DNA of 50,800 nucleotides from sequence record NC_047820.1. The stretch is one strand, 5' to 3'. The notes below the pieces were generated by a model. That model worked only from the letters and a program-made list of their open reading frames with translations. It was not told the origin of the DNA and did no database searches. Origin of the DNA: Escherichia phage vB_EcoS_ESCO41. Positions within the stretch are counted from its first letter, which is position 1. The number at the start of each line of letters is the position of its first letter. The translations under genes and the position numbers were made by a program. Of the stretch, positions 1,889 through 49,962 are shown in pieces.

Positions 1889-1928
1889 CACGAATTGCTA
1901 AACCAGTACCGCAAGGACGCGGTATAGT
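1886..1928 (+). promoter_or_regulatory. palindrome-promoter cassette: TAGCACGAATTGCTA + 22 bp + TATAGT
   Basis: Palindrome 1886-1900 overlaps stop codon; -10-like 1923-1928; leader CATCGAAACGAAACGAG 1934-1950. Confidence 0.6.
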
Positions 1929-1966
1929 TACTCCATCGAAACGAAACGAGTAATTGAGGATTTGAA

Positions 1967-2185
1967 ATGAGCAAGACAATCACGCTTGAGTGCCTTAAGA
2001 CAAACAACCCTGAGTTCCTTAAAGGTCACAAATATGTAGCAACGCTCGTTGATGGTAAGACCTGGGCCGTTAAGGGTGGGTTTAGTGATTACAAGTTCCC
2101 ACTTGATCACATACCTGGTGGAAACCTTGGTTTTGTTAGTGACTGTCGCTCAGTTAAGTTCGTGTTTGAAGTGGTAATGAAATAG
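1967..2185 (+). CDS. hypothetical protein (72 aa)
   Basis: ORF after cassette and leader; stop TAG inside next palindrome. Confidence 0.5.
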   Translation: MSKTITLECLKTNNPEFLKGHKYVATLVDGKTWAVKGGFSDYKFPLDHIPGGNLGFVSDCRSVKFVFEVVMK

Positions 2186-2225
2186 CACTTTTTGCTAAAC
2201 CTTCCGCAAGGCCATTTGATATAGT
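2183..2225 (+). promoter_or_regulatory. palindrome-promoter cassette: TAGCACTTTTTGCTA + 22 bp + TATAGT
   Basis: Palindrome 2183-2197 overlaps stop; -10-like 2220-2225 preceded by TGA. Confidence 0.6.
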
Positions 2226-2267
2226 GGCCTTGTTGAAGCAAAACAACCAATCACAGAGGATTTACAA

Positions 2268-2630
2268 ATGAAAGTTCGTTTACTTAACCCGTCAATCTAT
2301 GCAGGCATTAGCTACACCAAGCTCCACGAAAAGGAGACGAACCCGCGAGATCCTGGTTCATATCCGATCGTCGTAGAGGGTTTCTTTGATGGCACTGAAT
2401 TTAATAATACTTCAATCAAGGTTGGTGGTGACGAGCTTGATCGAGTATTCAAAAGCTATTTCAGTAGCGGAAAGCCAATGAACTCATGTTACGGTAGCGA
2501 AGCAGTTCTTGGTTGGTGGAACGATCCAGGCGAGCCTAAATCATGGGAACCTGTCGGGCCGTTCGATTACTGGAATAAGCTCAAGGCATCACGCGAAATT
2601 GGCGAGACGGTAGGGAAGGGTTACTTATGA
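2268..2630 (+). CDS. hypothetical protein (120 aa)
   Basis: ORF with RBS-like AGAGGA upstream. Confidence 0.55.
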   Translation: MKVRLLNPSIYAGISYTKLHEKETNPRDPGSYPIVVEGFFDGTEFNNTSIKVGGDELDRVFKSYFSSGKPMNSCYGSEAVLGWWNDPGEPKSWEPVGPFDYWNKLKASREIGETVGKGYL

Positions 2631-2806
2631 TTACTTTATGCATTCTGCTTTACATCCTGGGCGCAATTCCGGTTTATGCAATTGCAAAAGACGTTAGCAA
2701 TAGCGATAACAAATGGTACGACATGGTGATCGTTGCCGCTATCTGGCCCATTGCCATTGCTTTCGGGGTGGTTAATGGCATCTACCAAAAGTTGAAGGAG
2801 AAATAA
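2627..2806 (+). CDS. small hydrophobic protein (59 aa, below ORF-track cutoff)
   Basis: ATGA overlap with upstream stop; translation MITLCILLYILGAIPVYAIAK.. is membrane-like. Confidence 0.4.
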   Translation: MITLCILLYILGAIPVYAIAKDVSNSDNKWYDMVIVAAIWPIAIAFGVVNGIYQKLKEK

Positions 2807-2808
2807 TC

Positions 2809-3027
2809 ATGCAAGTCTACACTAACAGTAAAGGCATTGAGTTTTGTGCGGTAGGCGATGTTGTCCTGCGCACTGGTAGCGATGTCGGGGTTGTTAAAAT
2901 CTCACGCATCACACAGGATCAGTTGGTAAAGGGCATCCAGGCTGGAATCTTTACCTATCACTCATCGTTGACGGCTGATGATTACATCACACTTGATTCT
3001 GCGGTTCGCGTTGGGTTCATCGAATAG
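2809..3027 (+). CDS. hypothetical protein (72 aa)
   Basis: RBS GAAGGAG before ATG; stop TAG inside palindrome. Confidence 0.5.
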   Translation: MQVYTNSKGIEFCAVGDVVLRTGSDVGVVKISRITQDQLVKGIQAGIFTYHSSLTADDYITLDSAVRVGFIE

Positions 3028-3067
3028 CACTTTTTGTTAAAACTTGCTCGGAGACATTAGCTATAGT
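3025..3067 (+). promoter_or_regulatory. palindrome-promoter cassette: TAGCACTTTTTGTTA + 22 bp + TATAGT
   Basis: Palindrome 3025-3039 (G-T variant half-site), -10-like 3062-3067. Confidence 0.55.
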
Positions 3068-3108
3068 GCCTCCTGTCAAGTGAACACAAACCAACTGAGG
3101 AATCACAT

Positions 3109-3915
3109 ATGAACAGCATTAACCGTTATATCCCTGTGTCAGTGCCAACCAGCGTCAACATTCACGGTGTCGGAATGCAGGCCTGCGACGATGGGGTGTG
3201 GGTATCCTACGCGATGCATAAGCAAGAAATTGAGTCCTTACAGACACGTTTAAAGGCCTTAGAATCGACTCAAAAACATCAAATTTCTGCACCGTCGATT
3301 ATCGCTGACCATGTTGAGCAGGCAATCAAAGAAGCTGTAGGTAAGCTGGTGCACGAAGCATGTGAGCAATTGCTCAAGGATTTGCCTAAGTACAATGGCG
3401 ATCCGTGTCACAGCACTGTCGATGCGTTCGTGAATGATCTTGCGGCTGGCCCAGGTAAGACCATCATGGATGACACCTACAGCGTCGCAGGTGAATTGAC
3501 GAAGAACGCCAAGTTCACTTTCGGTAGCAATTTCGGTGAAGGCAAGGCGCTTACCATGTCAACCGCGAAAATGGAACCACGAAGCGGCGGTTACGGTTAT
3601 AGCAATCGTCACGCATGGGCGGTGGGTGAATGTGAATCAGCACGCGATCGCAAGGTGGCGGTTTGCTACCATGTTGGAGGCAATGAGTTTATCAATGGTT
3701 GCGAGTACGCGTATGAAATTGATGAATGCGAACCAGGATGTGAGCCGCGACTTATTCAAATCACGCAAGATGCCTTCTGCTCTGGATTAAAAGGTGATTA
3801 CCGTTGGGAAGCCAGGAGAATTGGTAATGTTATGAATGCCAAGGCAACGCTCGTTGACGCATACGCAATCATAAATCCTGATGGTGGCGTAGTGGCTCAG
3901 TTCTATATCAAATAG
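3109..3915 (+). CDS. hypothetical protein (268 aa), Cys-rich C-terminal half
   Basis: Long ORF; no recognised catalytic motif. Confidence 0.55.
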   Translation: MNSINRYIPVSVPTSVNIHGVGMQACDDGVWVSYAMHKQEIESLQTRLKALESTQKHQISAPSIIADHVEQAIKEAVGKLVHEACEQLLKDLPKYNGDPCHSTVDAFVNDLAAGPGKTIMDDTYSVAGELTKNAKFTFGSNFGEGKALTMSTAKMEPRSGGYGYSNRHAWAVGECESARDRKVAVCYHVGGNEFINGCEYAYEIDECEPGCEPRLIQITQDAFCSGLKGDYRWEARRIGNVMNAKATLVDAYAIINPDGGVVAQFYIK

Positions 3916-3955
3916 CACTTTTTGTTAAAAGGGGATTCATCCTGAGTGGTATAAT
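3913..3955 (+). promoter_or_regulatory. palindrome-promoter cassette: TAGCACTTTTTGTTA + 22 bp + TGGTATAAT
   Basis: Palindrome 3913-3927 overlaps stop; -10 TATAAT 3950-3955 with TG at -15/-14, inside hairpin GGGGATT..AATCCCC. Confidence 0.6.
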
Positions 3956-3988
3956 CCCCACATCAATCACACGAAAGGAAGTTAACAA

Positions 3989-4606
3989 ATGAATCAGATG
4001 TACACCATGATCAAGCATCACCTGAACACCGACGCAATCAATAAGACAGTATACTTGTTTGATTACGACGGCACTCTGTCGGACGGAACCCATCGCCTTC
4101 ATAAGCTGCCAACAAAGGATTTGCACCTTACTGAGTCATGGTCTGAGTTCAATCGACTATCAGAATATGATCAGCCTATCGAGTCAACCATTCAGGTAAT
4201 GAACAGCCTTTACAACTCCGGCGCGTTCATCATCATTCTAACAGGACGTTCAGACGAGGTGTGTGAGATTTCTACTCAGTGGCTTCATGATGCTGGAGCA
4301 AAATATAACGTTATGGTCATGCGCCAGGCTGATGACAACCGCAAGGACACCATCATCAAGGAGGAGTTTTTACGGTACATTGGCTTGCATCGCATCACGG
4401 CGGCATTTGATGACAGCCCTAGCGTAGTTGCTCACTTCCGAAGCCTCGGCATCACTACCTATCAGGTGTGTGACTATGGCGATAACGCGCACTCCGGCCT
4501 TAAGTCTCACGGCGTAGAAAAGGTTTGCGAGCACGAATTTAGCGATCCTCTACCTCCGCATGGTGTTCGCCAGTGCAAGAAATGCAATCTCGTAAGCGGT
4601 AAATAA
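3989..4606 (+). CDS. HAD-superfamily phosphatase-like protein
   Basis: FDYDGTLSDG matches the HAD DxDGT catalytic motif. Confidence 0.5.
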   Translation: MNQMYTMIKHHLNTDAINKTVYLFDYDGTLSDGTHRLHKLPTKDLHLTESWSEFNRLSEYDQPIESTIQVMNSLYNSGAFIIILTGRSDEVCEISTQWLHDAGAKYNVMVMRQADDNRKDTIIKEEFLRYIGLHRITAAFDDSPSVVAHFRSLGITTYQVCDYGDNAHSGLKSHGVEKVCEHEFSDPLPPHGVRQCKKCNLVSGK

Positions 4607-4655
4607 AACTAAACTTAACGGTCGAACATCTCGACCACTACTCAGGAATGTCAAA

Positions 4656-5273
4656 ATGTCAAAGATTATCATTCTCAACGGTCCGGCTGGTGTAGGTAAA
4701 GACACGATCGGCAACGCGCTCGCAGCGGATTACAATTGCATCCCGACCAGCTTCAAGCGTCCGATGTTTGAGATTGCCGCGTCAATCCTTGGTGTCAGGG
4801 CTTTTTCAATGTTCATCACCGCATACGACGACCGCGACCAGAAAGAGCATCCTCAGAGCTTTCTCGGTGGAAAGACCTGCCGCGAGTTCATGATCTGGAT
4901 TAGCGAAACAGTGGTCAAGCCGCTTTTTGGCAATCAGCAGTTCGGCAAATTGATGAGCGAACATATCCGTCTGTGTGATGAAGGATTCTGTTTTGTTTGC
5001 ACTGATGGCGGCTTCCCCGATGAAGTGATTCGACTCGTTGAAGATGGTCACGATGTTACCCTGGTCCGCTTGTTCATGGATGGCAAGACTTTCGCGGGAG
5101 ATAGCCGTGATTATATCCGCATCAAGGAATCGCATTTCCCTGATTACAAGAAATATAACGAACATGATGTGCATCTGGTGAATGGTGATATTGACGGCGG
5201 CGTCATAGCAGTTGTTCGCGCCTGCGGTATCCGTCCTGCAATCGACGAGTGGGCCGACGATATTCCTTGGTAA
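4656..5273 (+). CDS. P-loop nucleotide kinase, T4 gp1 (dNMP kinase)-like
   Basis: Walker A IIILNGPAGVGKDT resembles the T4 dNMP kinase N-terminus (recalled from memory). Confidence 0.55.
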   Translation: MSKIIILNGPAGVGKDTIGNALAADYNCIPTSFKRPMFEIAASILGVRAFSMFITAYDDRDQKEHPQSFLGGKTCREFMIWISETVVKPLFGNQQFGKLMSEHIRLCDEGFCFVCTDGGFPDEVIRLVEDGHDVTLVRLFMDGKTFAGDSRDYIRIKESHFPDYKKYNEHDVHLVNGDIDGGVIAVVRACGIRPAIDEWADDIPW

Positions 5274-5274
5274 A

Positions 5275-5317
5275 TAGCACGAATTGCTAAACCCGCTCCG
5301 GCGGGTTTTGTTATAGT
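5275..5317 (+). promoter_or_regulatory. palindrome-promoter cassette: TAGCACGAATTGCTA + 22 bp + TATAGT
   Basis: Palindrome 5275-5289 just after stop TAA; -10-like 5312-5317 preceded by TGT. Confidence 0.6.
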
Positions 5318-5346
5318 TAGTTCACACCAAACGACAGGAAAGCAAA

Positions 5347-7288: not shown

Positions 7289-7366
7289 GCTCCGCTAGCT
7301 CAATTGGAAAGAAGCAACGACCTTCTAAGTCGTAGGTTACTGGTTCGAACCCAGTGCGGAGCGCCA
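7289..7366 (+). tRNA. tRNA-Arg (anticodon UCU)
   Basis: Acceptor GCTCCGC/GCGGAGC, anticodon stem ACGAC/GTCGT with loop CTTCTAA, T-arm ACTGG-TTCGAAC-CCAGT, encoded CCA; D-arm irregular. Confidence 0.75.
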
Positions 7367-38060: not shown

Positions 38061-39242
38061 ATGTTGCCTATCGAGAAGTTGGTTGCGAACTTCGATAAAG
38101 AAAGAATCAAACAAATTCAGAGAGATTATCAGTTTGGCGAGATAACCCCTTACGAATTCCAGTGCGTTACATTTGATGCAATTGGAAAGGCTATTGGGAA
38201 GTATGAGGCCCCATTTATAGCAGACCTTTCCGTTTCTGCGGGTAAGACAATTATTCTTGCCATGATTGGTAAGCGCATGGAGCAATTAGGGTTGCCTTAT
38301 ATGGTTCTTTCTCGCCAGTCAGAGATAATCAGCCAGAACTCAGAAGAGCTCCGTAATTTCGGTATCCGTAACAGCGTATATTGCGCTGGCCTTAACGTTA
38401 AATCAGTTTACTACCCAACCATAGTGGCTAGTGAGGGTACGGCAGCCAATGGCTTATTTAAGGGGCTTGGTGACTATGTTCCTGCGGTTATCGCTATAGA
38501 TGAATGTCACATGCTTGATACCATAGATATTGTGGAAGCCGAAGAGAATGAAGAAACATTTGAGCAAATGAGCACAAAGAAAGGCGAGATGGTTTTTAAG
38601 GATGGCGTTAATACTGGATTGCTTGGTACTGGTCGTGCGCAGTACACGCTAATAATCACTGAGATGAAGCGTCGCTGCCGTGAAAAATACGGGCGGGAGC
38701 TTCGTATATTCGGCCTTACTGGTAGCCCTTATCGAAACAATGACCATATCGTCGTTAGCAATCCAAACATCCGTGGGTTCTGGCGAAAAACTGTGATTCA
38801 GGTTCCAACAAATTACCTTGTTGATTTGGGATTCGTGGTTCCTACTGTTTATGGCGAGGTTGGCGATTTAGGTTATGACCTTAGCGAGTTTGAGCCTGAC
38901 GGAAGCGATGGTGTGAAAGATTTCAGCAAGAAAGAAATGGATGCGATGGCTGCAAAGATTCACGACAATCAGTCAATGACTCAAAAAATAATGGGGTTTG
39001 TTGTAAAAATACTAGAGACTCGTAACGCCGCGCTGGTTACATGCGCTGGCAAGTTGCACTGCAGTGAAGCGGCTGCCGCACTGCCTGATGGATACCCTTA
39101 CGCAATCATTACTGATTCTACTGGCGAGAAAAAACGACGTGAGATTCTATCTGATTGCCAGACAGGTAAGTACAAAATAATATTCCAAATTGGGTGTCTA
39201 ACTACGGGCGTTTCGGTCCCGCCCTTACGCAATCATTACTGA
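38061..39242 (+). CDS. SF2 helicase, N-terminal part (reading frame broken by 127-bp tandem duplication)
   Basis: Walker A SVSAGKTI, DEAD-box-like AIDECHM; ORF stops 21 nt into the second repeat copy. Confidence 0.65.
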   Translation: MLPIEKLVANFDKERIKQIQRDYQFGEITPYEFQCVTFDAIGKAIGKYEAPFIADLSVSAGKTIILAMIGKRMEQLGLPYMVLSRQSEIISQNSEELRNFGIRNSVYCAGLNVKSVYYPTIVASEGTAANGLFKGLGDYVPAVIAIDECHMLDTIDIVEAEENEETFEQMSTKKGEMVFKDGVNTGLLGTGRAQYTLIITEMKRRCREKYGRELRIFGLTGSPYRNNDHIVVSNPNIRGFWRKTVIQVPTNYLVDLGFVVPTVYGEVGDLGYDLSEFEPDGSDGVKDFSKKEMDAMAAKIHDNQSMTQKIMGFVVKILETRNAALVTCAGKLHCSEAAAALPDGYPYAIITDSTGEKKRREILSDCQTGKYKIIFQIGCLTTGVSVPPLRNHY

Positions 39243-39348
39243 TTCTACTGGCGAGAAAAAACGACGTGAGATTCTATCTGATTGCCAGACAGGTAAGTAC
39301 AAAATAATATTCCAAATTGGGTGTCTAACTACGGGCGTTTCGGTCCCG
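39095..39348 (+). repeat. perfect tandem duplication, 2 x 127 bp (39095-39221 and 39222-39348), inside the helicase gene
   Basis: Base-by-base comparison; 127 is not a multiple of 3; deleting one copy restores a single ORF 38061..40182. Confidence 0.85.
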
Positions 39349-39369: not shown

Positions 39370-40182
39370 TTGAGAAAGATTGGTAGCTTAACTCTCATGA
39401 TTCAGCTTCTTGGGCGAGGCATGCGAATTCTAAAGAAAAAGCATATAGAAATGGGGATGAAAAAAGATGATCACCTTGTTCTAGACTTCGCCGGCGCACT
39501 TGACGATATGGCCGAACTTTACTTTGACCCAATCATTGAAGAAATTCAGGCTGAGAAGTTCAAGTCCTCAAGGAAAGGTGGTGATGAGGTCCGGCAGTGC
39601 CCGCAGTGTGGATATGAGAACTCACCATTTGCTCGACGCTGTAGCAACAAGATTGATGGAAAGCGCTGTGAGCACTTTTTCAGCTTTACGGTTTGTGAAG
39701 ATATTACTGACCCACAAACAAAGTCCGTCATCAAGAAAGGTTGCGGTACTCGCAACGACATAGCAGCAAAGGTTTGTCGTGAATGCGGAGAAATGCTTAA
39801 AGACCCTAATGCTAATCTAACCGGTAAGATGTATCGTCGTGGTGATTACCTCCGAGTTTATGATTTTCAAGTTGGTTTAAGTAAGAACCAGACTGGAATA
39901 GTTGTTAAATACAACATCATGGCGCATAACGGAGAGCGGTTTAATGCTTGGGAGTTCTTTAATCCAGAATCAGACCATCGAGTTTGCAGCGTGCTTTGGA
40001 AAAATTTCTGCCTATCCCATATTGAGAATCGCACAGAAGCAGCACGAATTGCTAAACTTCGCAGCGCAAAAATGATTATGATGAACGTAGATAAATTCCG
40101 TGCTCCTGTGCAGGTAACTCACAGAAAGAATGGCAAAGGAAAGGACATAATAGCTTTTAAGAATTTTGGAGAATTATTATGA
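39370..40182 (+). CDS. SF2 helicase, C-terminal part (motif VI plus Cys-rich zinc-finger-like region); possibly a pseudogene fragment
   Basis: QLLGRGMR helicase motif VI; CPQCG..RRCSNK..CEHF and CGTRND..CRECG; frame continuous with upstream ORF if one repeat copy is removed. Confidence 0.55.
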   Translation: MRKIGSLTLMIQLLGRGMRILKKKHIEMGMKKDDHLVLDFAGALDDMAELYFDPIIEEIQAEKFKSSRKGGDEVRQCPQCGYENSPFARRCSNKIDGKRCEHFFSFTVCEDITDPQTKSVIKKGCGTRNDIAAKVCRECGEMLKDPNANLTGKMYRRGDYLRVYDFQVGLSKNQTGIVVKYNIMAHNGERFNAWEFFNPESDHRVCSVLWKNFCLSHIENRTEAARIAKLRSAKMIMMNVDKFRAPVQVTHRKNGKGKDIIAFKNFGELL

Positions 40183-49746: not shown

Positions 49747-49962
49747 TTAGAACGGTATTCCGTCGTCAAATTTTAAGCGGTAGTCGAAATCATCACCGAT
49801 TCCGTCGACTGACTGGTTGCTCTCGCTTTCCAGATCCATATCCATAATGCCGAGAGCGTCATCAAGTTCTATACATCCATAAGCTACCTTGAGCGCCCAC
49901 TCTTCATTAAGTCCGGCTTCAAGTGCCGCGCGGTGGCGGCTCCAGAAATTATCTTGATGCAC
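49747..49962 (-). CDS. small acidic protein ending in SSB-like tail ..FDDGIPF (GTG start)
   Basis: 71 aa, highly acidic; C-terminal DDGIPF mirrors the SSB tail DDIPF of 33240..33683. Confidence 0.4.
   Translation of the reverse strand: MHQDNFWSRHRAALEAGLNEEWALKVAYGCIELDDALGIMDMDLESESNQSVDGIGDDFDYRLKFDDGIPF

Follow-up and report, generated by a model that had tools for sequence, protein, structure and literature searches.

Mammalian PNKP consists of an FHA domain, a HAD phosphatase domain and a P-loop kinase domain, the phosphatase preceding the kinase. In phage T7, gp1.7 is a kinase for dNMPs that have been salvaged from the DNA of the host, and T5 Dnk (T5.043) is a broad-specificity dNMP kinase of 250 aa. 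For T4 Pnkp (PseT) the roles of the catalytic residues, including Asp165 and Asp167, have been described, and the enzyme hydrolyses 3'-dTMP at 24 per second (PMC3592404). The T4 dNMP kinase gp1 phosphorylates a modified nucleotide (PMC10653934), and its residues G13-K14-D15-T16 are ATP/phosphate-binding residues of structure 1DEK (PMC10653934 Table 2). A pair of PNK and dNMP-kinase genes has already been remarked on in Drexlerviridae and was proposed to enhance nucleotide supply (PMC13164509). A paper on retron Eco2 in which both PNK and Drexlerviridae are mentioned was set aside, as T4 PNK serves in it purely as a reagent.

Such a pair is present in Escherichia phage vB_EcoS_ESCO41 (ESCO41), a T1-like phage of the Drexlerviridae. 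The window analysed was its whole genome (NC_047820.1; 50,800 nucleotides). Two ORFs of 205 aa each, ORF A (gp9; 3989-4606) and ORF B (gp10; 4656-5273), were located on the + strand with a gap of 49 nt between them, exactly where the original prediction had placed an adjacent pair consisting of a DxDGT-motif hydrolase gene and the gene of a P-loop kinase resembling T4 dNMP kinase. Both proteins are in GenBank with the exact sequence, ORF A as AQY55263.1 with the label 'polynucleotide kinase' and ORF B as AQY55264.1 with the label 'hypothetical protein HOR71_gp10'. Putative ribosome-binding sites were read from the sequence 5' of position 3989 (AAAGGAAG) and 5' of position 4656 (AGGA). As these sites are plausible and hundreds of conserved homologues exist for each protein, the two genes are not chance ORFs. 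The pair is common, is annotated in related phages and appears in the literature; it is known by annotation and largely ordinary.

An extended -10 promoter-like element (TGGTATAAT; 3947-3955, + strand) was read from the sequence 34 nt upstream of the ORF A start. It was missed by the sigma-70 consensus scan, which requires a -35 hexamer that this element lacks. In the annotated relative ETEP102 a promoter is annotated at the equivalent position upstream of the pair. The terminator scan reported an inverted repeat with an 11-pair stem on the minus strand in the gap between the two ORFs (4616-4640); as a terminator of the + strand it was rejected, since it has no T-run 3' on that strand. The scan also reported an intrinsic-terminator-like hairpin on the + strand, AAACCCGC-TCCG-GCGGGTTT followed by TGTTATAGTT (5289-5318, the hairpin itself at 5289-5308). 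It starts 16 nt past the ORF B stop codon, and a terminator is annotated at the matching place in ETEP102. The promoter-like element and the hairpin would bound a transcription unit of two genes.

ORF A matched the Pfam family HAD_PNKP (PF25109) with an E-value of 2.8e-19 and 70.1 bits (cutoff, 27.6) and phrog_415 with an E-value of 1.4e-63. The phmmer matches were T4 Pnkp (5uj0 and 1ltq) and Pnkp1 (4xrp). The AF2 model had a pLDDT of 82.8 with a confident core, and its top PDB matches in Foldseek were 1ltq and 5uj0 (target-normalised TM, 0.77-0.80) and 4xru. HAD motif I, D25-Y-D27-G-T29 (4061-4075), follows F and contains the nucleophile and acid/base aspartates. D25, D27 and G28 were invariant in 49 homologues and T29 was nearly so, and the motif aligned with D165-V-D167-G-T of T4 Pnkp. 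Further HAD motifs were T85-G86-R87 (S211-G-R213 in T4) and D141-D142 (D277-D278 in T4), and the stretch R118-K-D120...K124-E-E corresponded to RKDDVVKEE of T4, K124 being the equivalent of T4 Lys258. Motif I, motif II (T85), motif III (K124), motif IV (D141-D142) and a Rossmann-like core, as expected of the HAD (DxDxT) superfamily, were all present.

In hhalign ORF A aligned only to residues 138-297 of T4 Pnkp (probability, 97.1%), and neither Pfam nor NCBIfam gave a P-loop or kinase-family match within it. A bifunctional polynucleotide kinase/phosphatase was rejected on account of this restricted alignment and the lack of a P-loop. The GenBank label is a misnomer for a predicted kinase-less phosphatase. 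Judged by sequence and model, ORF A is a PNKP-type 3'-phosphatase with intact catalytic residues, T4 Pnkp minus its kinase domain. Because its nearest structures are the phosphatase domain of T4 Pnkp and Pnkp1, and because the catalytic residues of T4 are kept, it is likely to remove 3'-phosphates from deoxynucleotides or from nucleic-acid ends. The original prediction was right about the HAD fold, and its generic phosphatase without a named substrate can be replaced by a PNKP-type enzyme with likely 3'-phosphate chemistry.

The C terminus of ORF A carries an optional Cys/His tail, C180-x-H182...C196-x-x-C199 (4526-4585, + strand), which may form a small zinc-binding knuckle. Some homologues have this tail, Rtp gp4 (179 aa) lacks it, and in P0165 and P0173 it occurs twice. 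In the AF2 model it formed short strands with a pLDDT of 62-73 after the disordered residues 163-179.

The specificity of the phosphatase might also have shifted to a 5'-nucleotide, compare the T5 deoxynucleotidase, or to a phosphorylated immune signal, so that it would sculpt the nucleotide pool or act against a host defence while the kinase counterbalances it. Class B nucleotidases (AphA) were the structural matches of ORF A next after the PNKP family. The clade of ORF A also has an invariant cap-like segment, H35-R36...L47-T48...W51..F54, which is absent from T4 and in which E49, S50 and N55 were nearly invariant, and the gene lies among small early-type ORFs without assigned function. The residues of the T4 3'-phosphatase site, including R36 (R176 in T4) and R87 (R213 in T4), were nevertheless invariant, and such a shift is considered decidedly improbable.

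ORF B matched phrog_139 ('deoxynucleoside monophosphate kinase') with an E-value of 2e-43, and T4 gp1 matched the same profile span with an E-value of 1.8e-65. Alignment of ORF B with T4 gp1 in hhalign extended over the full length (174 columns; probability, 92.6%). The best solved-structure match of the AF2 model (pLDDT, 94.3) was 1DEK (1dek_A, T4 gp1) with a query-normalised TM of 0.65, while the next match did not exceed 0.51, and the matches in BFVD were mostly proteins named dNMP kinase. Beyond P-loop noise no Pfam or NCBIfam family was found for ORF B. Searches of PDB sequences with single-sequence phmmer, with a 20-sequence profile and with a 67-sequence profile gave only P-loop-level hits and did not recover 1DEK. 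The relationship of ORF B to gp1 is consequently a remote one, which emerged from PHROGs, from hhalign and from the search by fold. The original prediction had named profile searches as its check; in these, matches to unrelated families did not occur, and both the HAD hydrolase and the gp1-like kinase were recovered.

A distant BFVD match of ORF B, A0A6J5RPH7 (18% identity), was named nucleoside 2-deoxyribosyltransferase. This protein name hints at a role of the kinase family at the level of mononucleotides.

The Walker A motif (P-loop) of ORF B was G9-P-A-G-V-G14-K15-D16-T17 (4680-4706, + strand). G14 and K15 were invariant and D16 was present in 66 of 67 homologues, and the GKDT sequence aligned with G13-K14-D15-T16 of gp1. 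The gp1 residues R68, R132, D175, E181 and D204 had equivalents in ORF B (R60, R76, D117, E123 and D149, respectively). Two ligands of the dNMP phosphate in 1DEK were not conserved in place in the profile alignment, which is not a structural superposition, K37 being replaced by F38 and R177 by G119. As these two residues are not kept in place and the second-domain insertion of gp1 (about 36 residues) is missing, the acceptor site appears to differ from that of gp1. The invariant residues K34 and R151 of ORF B may be substitutes for K37 and R177. A literature search returned no characterised member of this compact kinase subfamily (about 190-205 aa).

The similarity to polynucleotide kinases was much more limited. 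The 50 best structural matches of ORF B included neither T4 Pnk nor the kinase domain of mammalian PNKP, and only 25 P-loop columns aligned with residues 1-154 of T4 Pnk in hhalign. A polynucleotide 5'-hydroxyl kinase of the T4 Pnk, CthPnk, Clp1 or PNKP type was not accepted for ORF B, as homology to T4 Pnk stopped at the P-loop. Sequence and predicted fold alike place ORF B with the phage dNMP kinases T4 gp1 and T5 Dnk, of which it is a compact homologue over the full length.

The C-terminal tip of ORF B, W199-A-D-D-I-P-W205 (5250-5270, + strand), resembled the C-terminal tip (SSB-Ct) of SSB, the protein that binds single-stranded DNA. The canonical SSB-Ct motif is DDDIPF, the tip of E. coli SSB (PMC5872125), and the phage SSB (phrog_44) ends in FEDDIPF. 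In ORF B, too, an acidic run followed by I-P and an aromatic residue was found at the extreme C terminus of a flexible tail, which comprises the last 15 residues (pLDDT, 62-74 in the AF2 model). The ending [DE]..[IL]PW was present in 85 of 270 kinase homologues, including members that were only 45-57% identical. In a six-frame scan of the window only three ORFs, the SSB among them, had a tip of this type. A 71-aa early protein (49747-49962) also carries one. The tip common to ORF B, the phage SSB and the 71-aa protein might point to a shared docking code. Nothing was found in the literature about SSB-tip mimicry by a phage kinase; the apparent mimicry by the WADDIPW tip is new here, as a resemblance between sequences.

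The linkage of the two genes was surveyed at 80 loci of IMG/VR that carry a homologue of the kinase (39-100% identity), most of which belonged to related Drexlerviridae. A HAD_PNKP gene was present upstream on the kinase strand in 66 loci, always in the order phosphatase then kinase (66/66), while 14 kinase genes had no phosphatase gene nearby. The two genes were directly adjacent in 31 of the 66 linked loci and separated by 0.7-2.2 kb of other sequence in 35. After de-replication at 70% identity the linkage was kept in 17 of 24 clusters. In Klebsiella Webervirus the pair, whose stop and start codons overlap, lies between the genes of the exonuclease and the holin, a genome position different from the left arm where it sits in ESCO41, and the pair was also found in one Autographiviridae phage. 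Three phosphatase-kinase fusion proteins (P0267, P0391 and P0257) were found on at least five contigs and had a conserved linker common to all. Since order and strand are kept in diverged phages, the pair moves jointly between positions and natural fusions exist, the linkage of phosphatase and kinase is not a matter of chance. Each enzyme can also work alone, as indicated by the kinase-only loci and by phage Rtp, which has the phosphatase gene without an adjacent kinase gene.

The occurrence of either gene by itself would fit mere neighbours with unrelated jobs, brought together by shared expression timing and the common descent of the phages; for example, the phosphatase might have as its substrate some phosphorylated molecule that comes from the host or is related to defence, and lie beside a housekeeping-type nucleotide kinase. 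The gaps in more than half of the linked loci and the predominance of related Drexlerviridae in the sample point the same way. However, three independent fusion proteins have both domains in one chain, order and strand did not vary in any linked locus, and the linkage outlasts de-replication, a different genome position and a different phage family. An accidental neighbourhood is therefore regarded as improbable. The module of the original prediction was upheld as far as the pair as a unit is concerned, on the strength of conserved synteny and natural fusions.

The other part of that claim, a function in nucleotide modification, was not upheld, as no modification enzyme was found near the pair in a scan of the flanking ORFs. 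On that view, the pair would serve to produce or process a non-canonical deoxynucleotide that ends up in phage DNA. Phage dNMP kinases often accompany base-modification pathways, and the modified nucleotide phosphorylated by T4 gp1 is hydroxymethyl-dCMP. Against this, all ten neighbouring ORFs scanned for modification or nucleotide-metabolism functions are without assigned function, and no base-modifying Pfam match was obtained among the other large unassigned ORFs of the window. The annotated relative ETEP102 lists only Dam- and Dcm-type methylases, and to our knowledge T1-like phages do not carry hypermodified bases. A nucleotide-modification module is considered very improbable indeed.

An ATP-dependent DNA ligase gene was found directly after the kinase gene in 15 T7-like loci. 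Seven of these had a HAD_PNKP gene immediately upstream, so that phosphatase, kinase and ligase formed a triad behind exo- and endonuclease genes; the other eight had kinase and ligase without the phosphatase. As T7-like phages put DNA ligase directly after the kinase, the main rival explanation is a split end-healing enzyme, in which a PNKP-type phosphatase is combined with a gp1-type kinase that replaces the lost kinase domain of PNK. This explanation, absent from the original prediction, is opened by the PNKP-type identity of ORF A. ORF A would remove 3'-phosphates or 2',3'-cyclic phosphates, ORF B would phosphorylate 5'-OH ends of DNA or RNA, and the ends would be sealed by host LigA, or by the phage ligase in T7-like phages, after damage or cuts by host defence nucleases.

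Besides the triad, the specific PNKP type of ORF A favours end healing, as does the linker helix of T4, which is kept as if ORF A were derived from a full-length Pnkp. In the fusion proteins the phosphatase comes before the kinase, which is also the order in mammalian PNKP. In Rtp a T4 Stp-like peptide (gp6) is encoded two genes downstream of the phosphatase, among early genes of the counter-defence type. The kinase, however, matched dNMP kinases over its full length and T4 Pnk only at the P-loop, with the PNKs outside the top 50 structures. After strand 2, where T4 Pnk has Asp35, which we take to be the catalytic general base, ORF B has S32-F33-K34 with an invariant K34 and no Asp, the correspondence being deduced rather than aligned. 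Neither the annotation of ETEP102 nor the large unassigned ORFs of the window yielded an RNA or DNA ligase, and no T4 Stp-like homologue comparable to Rtp gp6 was found in the window. The phosphatase is missing from 8 of the 15 T7-like loci, and ligase and nucleotide-kinase genes cluster anyway in T7-like genomes, where ligase gene 1.3 and nucleotide-kinase gene 1.7 belong to one cluster. Moreover, bacteria seldom have DNA breaks that leave 3'-phosphate and 5'-OH ends. End healing by a split enzyme is considered unlikely.

The preferred reading is that the two ORFs make up a self-contained operon and have a joint function in DNA-precursor and DNA-end metabolism during replication, to which we assign a probability of about 50%. 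The most likely role of the pair would be the supply of DNA precursors together with the clean-up of 3' ends for replication. ESCO41 does not have a DNA polymerase and relies on that of the host. ORF B would convert 5'-dNMPs, released by nuclease breakdown of host DNA, to dNDPs with ATP, and host NDP kinase would convert the dNDPs to dNTPs; salvage, as in the original prediction, would then be part of the role of the pair. ORF A would strip 3'-phosphates, as the T4 enzyme does with 3'-dNMPs and 3'-phosphorylated DNA, and would thereby return unusable nucleotides to the pool or turn blocked 3' ends back into primer termini. The flexible WADDIPW tail might dock the kinase on a protein that recognises the SSB tip, so that precursors would be synthesised at the replication fork. 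Such docking would be a minimal counterpart of the dNTP-synthetase complex of T4.

The coupling of a 3'-phosphatase to a 5'-dNMP kinase is chemically weak, because a phosphatase acting on 3'-dNMPs yields deoxynucleosides, of which E. coli re-phosphorylates only thymidine efficiently. This weakness would be lifted if the substrates were 3',5'-bisphosphates or DNA ends. The order of kinase then ligase in T7-like phages fits end repair equally well. Two more specific proposals are put forward tentatively and as doubtful. One is that the WADDIPW tip is a working mimic of the SSB tip, by which the kinase, and through it also the phosphatase, would be tethered to some replisome protein able to read SSB tails, in a minimal motif-based complex resembling the dNTP synthetase of T4. 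The other is that a gp1-type kinase has displaced the PNK domain, from which a new end-healing enzyme, split or fused, would have arisen as a partner of DNA ligase.

With these results two labels can be corrected, gp9 being a predicted kinase-less 3'-phosphatase and gp10 a predicted member of the dNMP-kinase family rather than a hypothetical protein. Synteny, mobility as a unit and fusions provide comparative evidence that the pair is one functional module in phages of the T1 type and in some T7-like ones. A biochemical coupling, should it exist, would reveal the job of a stand-alone PNKP-type phosphatase where a phage lacks RNA ligase. A tail with a real SSB-like function would offer a small phage that depends on the polymerase of its host a simple route to nucleotide supply at the fork, and enzymes would join the list of SSB-tip mimics.

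The C-terminal phosphatase domain of T4 Pnkp (PseT; 1LTQ/5UJ0) was the nearest known protein to ORF A in both sequence and structure, with 21-23% identity in structural alignments. Both have the motif set DxDGT, (S/T)GR, RKDxxxKEE and DD, and ORF A starts at the interdomain linker helix of the T4 enzyme, which it retains. ORF A differs from T4 Pnkp in that the N-terminal P-loop kinase domain is absent, the segment between motifs I and II is about 15 residues longer and clade-specific, and both a conserved His-rich disordered stretch and the optional Cys/His tail are additional. ORF B and T4 gp1 (1DEK/1DEL) belong to a common PHROG family and have in common the full-length profile alignment and the GKDT P-loop, although their identity is only about 12% and ORF B is 36 residues shorter. 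The invariant residues K34, K63, K88 and R151 and the SSB-like tip set ORF B apart from gp1. Like the tips of phage and E. coli SSB, it has a run of acidic residues, Ile-Pro, an aromatic residue at the very end and another aromatic six positions upstream of that, but both aromatics are Trp instead of Phe, and the carrier is an enzyme and not an OB-fold ssDNA binder.

T5 Dnk resembled ORF B in the N-terminal 65 residues (38% identity; hhalign probability, 96.4%), a part that covers GKDT, SF-K-P-F/Y-E-I/L-A and R..KE, and pairwise BLASTP gave an E-value of 7e-8. The C-terminal two-thirds gave no confident hhalign alignment, and no HAD_PNKP gene is present next to Dnk in the annotated region of T5. 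In relatives of T7 the homologue of ORF B belongs to the block of DNA-metabolism genes, where the ligase follows it directly, in a setting comparable to that of the gene 1.7 nucleotide kinase and the gene 1.3 ligase of T7, which are class II genes. T7 gp1.7 is not known to contain a P-loop or to be related to ORF B in sequence, and the analogy is one of function only. Mammalian PNKP combines the same kinds of activity in the same order as the operon of ESCO41 and the fusion proteins P0267, P0391 and P0257, but its kinase is of the PNK type, whereas ORF B is assigned to the dNMP-kinase family.

Two plus-strand open reading frames of 205 codons each were found at 3989-4606 (ORF A, with the motif FDYDGT) and 4656-5273 (ORF B, with GPAGVGKDT), as the original prediction had placed them. 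Their products were identical to GenBank entries AQY55263.1 (vB_EcoS_ESCO41 gp9), named "polynucleotide kinase", and AQY55264.1 (gp10), named "hypothetical protein". The closest annotated relatives were T1-like siphophages with about 87% identity. The relative ETEP102 has a typical Drexlerviridae gene set; its annotation contains no DNA polymerase and no ligase, and its only nucleotide-metabolism genes are this pair, named "putative polynucleotide kinase phosphatase" and "putative deoxynucleotide kinase". The gene pair itself is already known, being annotated in relatives and noted in a 2026 paper (PMC13164509).

An extended -10 element, TGGTATAAT, was read from the sequence at 3947-3955, 5' of ORF A, and a scan found a hairpin rich in G+C, with T-rich sequence behind it, at 5289-5318, 3' of ORF B. 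Since a promoter and a terminator are annotated at the corresponding positions of ETEP102, these signals make the two genes look like a self-contained bicistronic unit. Directly 5' of this putative operon lies a 268-aa ORF (3109-3915, plus strand) with no Pfam or PHROG matches. The sole tRNA gene of the genome, a tRNA-Arg with anticodon TCT, is located at 7289-7366 (plus strand), and ETEP102 carries a tRNA-Arg in the corresponding region. A perfect 127-bp tandem duplication at 39095-39348 (39095-39221 and 39222-39348) breaks up the DNA helicase gene within which it lies, leaving two ORFs that differ in frame (38061-39242 and 39370-40182); it could be either an artefact of assembly or a genuine disruption.

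ORF A scored above the Pfam threshold for HAD_PNKP (PF25109; E 2.8e-19) and belonged to phrog_415 (E 1.4e-63). The only PDB sequence matches were the phosphatase domain of T4 Pnkp and Pnkp1 from the RNA-repair complex Pnkp1/Rnl/Hen1. The AlphaFold model (mean pLDDT 82.8, with a confident core) was most similar to the solved structures 1LTQ and 5UJ0 (target-normalised TM 0.77-0.80) and 4XRU, followed by AphA-type nucleotidases. In a profile alignment with T4 Pnkp, ORF A covered T4 residues 138-297 with a probability of 97.1%, so that its start corresponds to the T4 kinase-phosphatase linker helix (QMYTMIKHHL versus SMYKSMREYL). Unlike T4 Pnkp, ORF A has no counterpart of the kinase domain, and the GenBank label "polynucleotide kinase" is therefore wrong for this protein. 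The set of catalytic residues is complete, with little or no variation among 49 homologues: D25 and D27 correspond to T4 D165 and D167, R36 to R176, T85-G-R87 to S211-G-R213, R118-K-D120...K124-E-E to RKDDVVKEE with K258, and D141-D142 to D277-D278. The roles of T4 D165, D167, S211, K258 and D278 have been described, and T4 Pnkp cleaves 3'-dTMP at a rate of 24 per second but leaves ribonucleoside 3'-monophosphates intact (PMC3592404).

Three additions are specific to the clade of ORF A. Motifs I and II are separated by a strongly conserved segment; residues 163-179 form a stretch that is conserved, rich in His and, by prediction, disordered; and a CxH...CxxC tail (C180, H182, C196, C199) is optional, being missing from Rtp gp4 and doubled in some homologues. 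Within the His-rich stretch, residues 166-178 (4484-4522) read NAHSGLKSHGVEK, with the consensus HxHLxSHGV; this segment has a pLDDT below 50, yet is conserved family-wide and could be an interaction or metal-binding motif. That the phosphatase has a shifted specificity or serves in anti-defence appears distinctly unlikely.

For ORF B, Pfam and NCBIfam detected the P-loop only, and sequence searches of the PDB never reached T4 gp1. The relationship to gp1 is nevertheless real. ORF B matched phrog_139 (E 2e-43), and gp1, whose sequence was checked against 1DEK, matched the same span of this profile (E 1.8e-65). A family profile of 67 sequences aligned with gp1 over 174 columns (probability 92.6%) and with T5 Dnk over the first 65 residues (38% identity, probability 96.4%); with the kinase domain of T4 Pnk, taken from a verified Pnkp sequence, it aligned over 25 P-loop columns only. 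The AlphaFold model (pLDDT 94.3) had 1DEK as its best solved match (TM 0.65), with adenylate, shikimate and gluconate kinases at 0.51 or below, and the matching viral predicted structures were mostly named dNMP kinase. Among the structural relatives in BFVD, A0A6J5RPH7 (297 aa) is named nucleoside 2-deoxyribosyltransferase and A0A7S6HV70 of Escherichia phage JEP1 (518 aa) DOD homing-endonuclease domain protein; judged from their names, the former may be a fusion and the latter an intein-type insertion.

Residues were mapped onto gp1 using the 1DEK ligand list of PMC10653934 and the hhalign register. The ORF B family retains GKDT and, with ORF B equivalents in brackets, gp1 R68 (R60), R132 (R76), D175 (D117), E181 (E123) and D204 (D149), whereas gp1 K37 and R177 have no conserved counterpart at their positions and a gp1 insertion of about 36 residues is absent. 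K34, K63, K88 and R151 are invariant and specific to the family. From the phrog_139 membership shared with gp1, the gp1 and Dnk profile alignments and the fold match to 1DEK, ORF B belongs to a compact subfamily within the dNMP-kinase family of phages, as its predicted likeness to T4 dNMP kinase had implied, with dNMPs as its putative acceptors. The dNMP-kinase family was represented by 2,549 clusters at a cutoff of E 0.001.

Linkage of the two genes was determined by a local HMM search of 80 IMG/VR loci with a kinase homologue (39-100% identity). A HAD_PNKP gene was present upstream on the same strand in 66 loci, always in the order phosphatase-kinase, and was absent within 5 kb in 14. The genes were directly adjacent in 31 of the 66 linked loci (33-165 nt between domain ends) and 0.7-2.2 kb apart in 35. 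Linkage was kept in 17 of 24 kinase clusters at 70% identity and in 6 of 10 at 55%. The pair lies in the left arm of the window, before the terminase genes; in Klebsiella Webervirus it is found between a DNA-repair exonuclease and a holin, with overlapping stop and start codons. The exonuclease-holin location is common, and the pair was proposed to enhance nucleotide supply (PMC13164509). Outside Drexlerviridae, it also occurs in the Autographiviridae phage MR4.

The most telling evidence of linkage came from single polypeptides that fuse both domains in the order of the operon. P0267 (403 aa) was present on three contigs, the longest a phage-like contig of 60.8 kb; P0391 (413 aa) was recognised solely from its match to P0267 (74% identity across 99% of the length of the query), and P0257 (461 aa) is 37% identical to P0267. 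The two sequences examined, P0267 and P0257, have a common conserved linker and match both phrog_415 and phrog_139. Though rare, these fusions argue for a functional association, and it is unlikely that phosphatase and kinase are mere neighbours. The linker of the fusion proteins also contains GPELHG, a remnant of the His-rich segment. The C-terminal string NSTNC was common to the unrelated proteins P0079, P0081, P0247 and P0272 and to several locus ORFs (L014, L016, L018, L020, L021, L023, L026 and L058), and has the look of an artefact of data processing at the ends of contigs, not of biology. Phage Rtp (L089) encodes a PNKP-type phosphatase (rtp4, 1444-1983) without an adjoining kinase; two genes 3' of rtp4, at 2432-2524, lies a 30-aa peptide closely resembling T4 Stp, which activates the anticodon nuclease PrrC. 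No Stp-like peptide is encoded in the window.

In T7-like phages, an ATP-dependent DNA ligase was always located directly 3' of the kinase homologue (15 loci: Pseudomonas phage MR4 [L087], L068-L076 and L079-L083). The MR4 cluster is at 1914-4040, and its ligase ends in the acidic tail SEGDF. This unexpected gene order is the strongest support for the main alternative, in which the two proteins make up a split end-healing enzyme, and 7 of the 15 loci contain a phosphatase-kinase-ligase triad 3' of exonuclease and endonuclease genes. However, the phosphatase is missing from the other 8, the kinase falls in the dNMP-kinase family, and ORF B lacks the PNK-type catalytic aspartate at the position deduced for it after strand 2. 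No ligase was found in the window when the annotation of the relative and the large unassigned ORFs were checked. Clustering of ligase and nucleotide-kinase genes is, moreover, already a trait of T7, which clusters its own. A split end-healing enzyme is possible but doubtful.

DNA-precursor supply together with 3'-end clean-up for replication is the favoured function of the module, with a probability of about 0.5. It is preferred because ORF B shows homology along its whole length to proven dNMP kinases but none to 5'-OH kinases outside the P-loop, because the phage relies on the polymerase of its host and lacks further nucleotide enzymes, and because the T4-type phosphatase is an efficient 3'-phosphatase on deoxynucleotides and DNA. 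The weak point is the coupling chemistry, since a 3'-dNMP phosphatase yields nucleosides, which are not kinase substrates, unless the enzymes in fact act on 3',5'-bisphosphates or DNA ends. The nucleotide-modification role also suggested originally found no counterpart: no modification enzymes were present among the neighbouring and other large unassigned ORFs scanned, and a modification module is highly improbable.

The additions made here to the known pair are small, namely corrected protein names, the associations with fusions and ligases, and an SSB-like tail of the kinase. The last seven residues of ORF B, W-A-D-D-I-P-W, lie on a tail of reduced model confidence. The SSB (protein binding single-stranded DNA) of the phage (33240-33683, plus strand, phrog_44) ends in F-E-D-D-I-P-F; in bacteria, the canonical tip of SSB reads DDDIPF (PMC5872125). 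A six-frame scan of the window found such a tip in only three ORFs: the kinase, SSB and a 71-aa ORF at 49747-49962 (minus strand). The latter is conserved and acidic, belongs to phrog_9085, has homologues in 436 phage records and ends in FDDGIPF. An acidic-(I/L)-P-W tip was present in 85 of 270 kinase homologues, some only 45-57% identical to ORF B; the remaining homologues end about 15 residues sooner, without the tip. Literature searches found no publication on an SSB-like kinase tail. The sequence likeness to SSB tips and the retention in diverged homologues suggest that the tail has been selected as a docking motif, although it might instead be a decoy. That the kinase is tethered to the replisome, or that a gp1-type kinase serves as part of a PNKP, is proposed tentatively. 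By analogy with the T4 dNTP-synthetase complex, the tail of ORF B might seat the kinase on a replisome protein that binds SSB tails.
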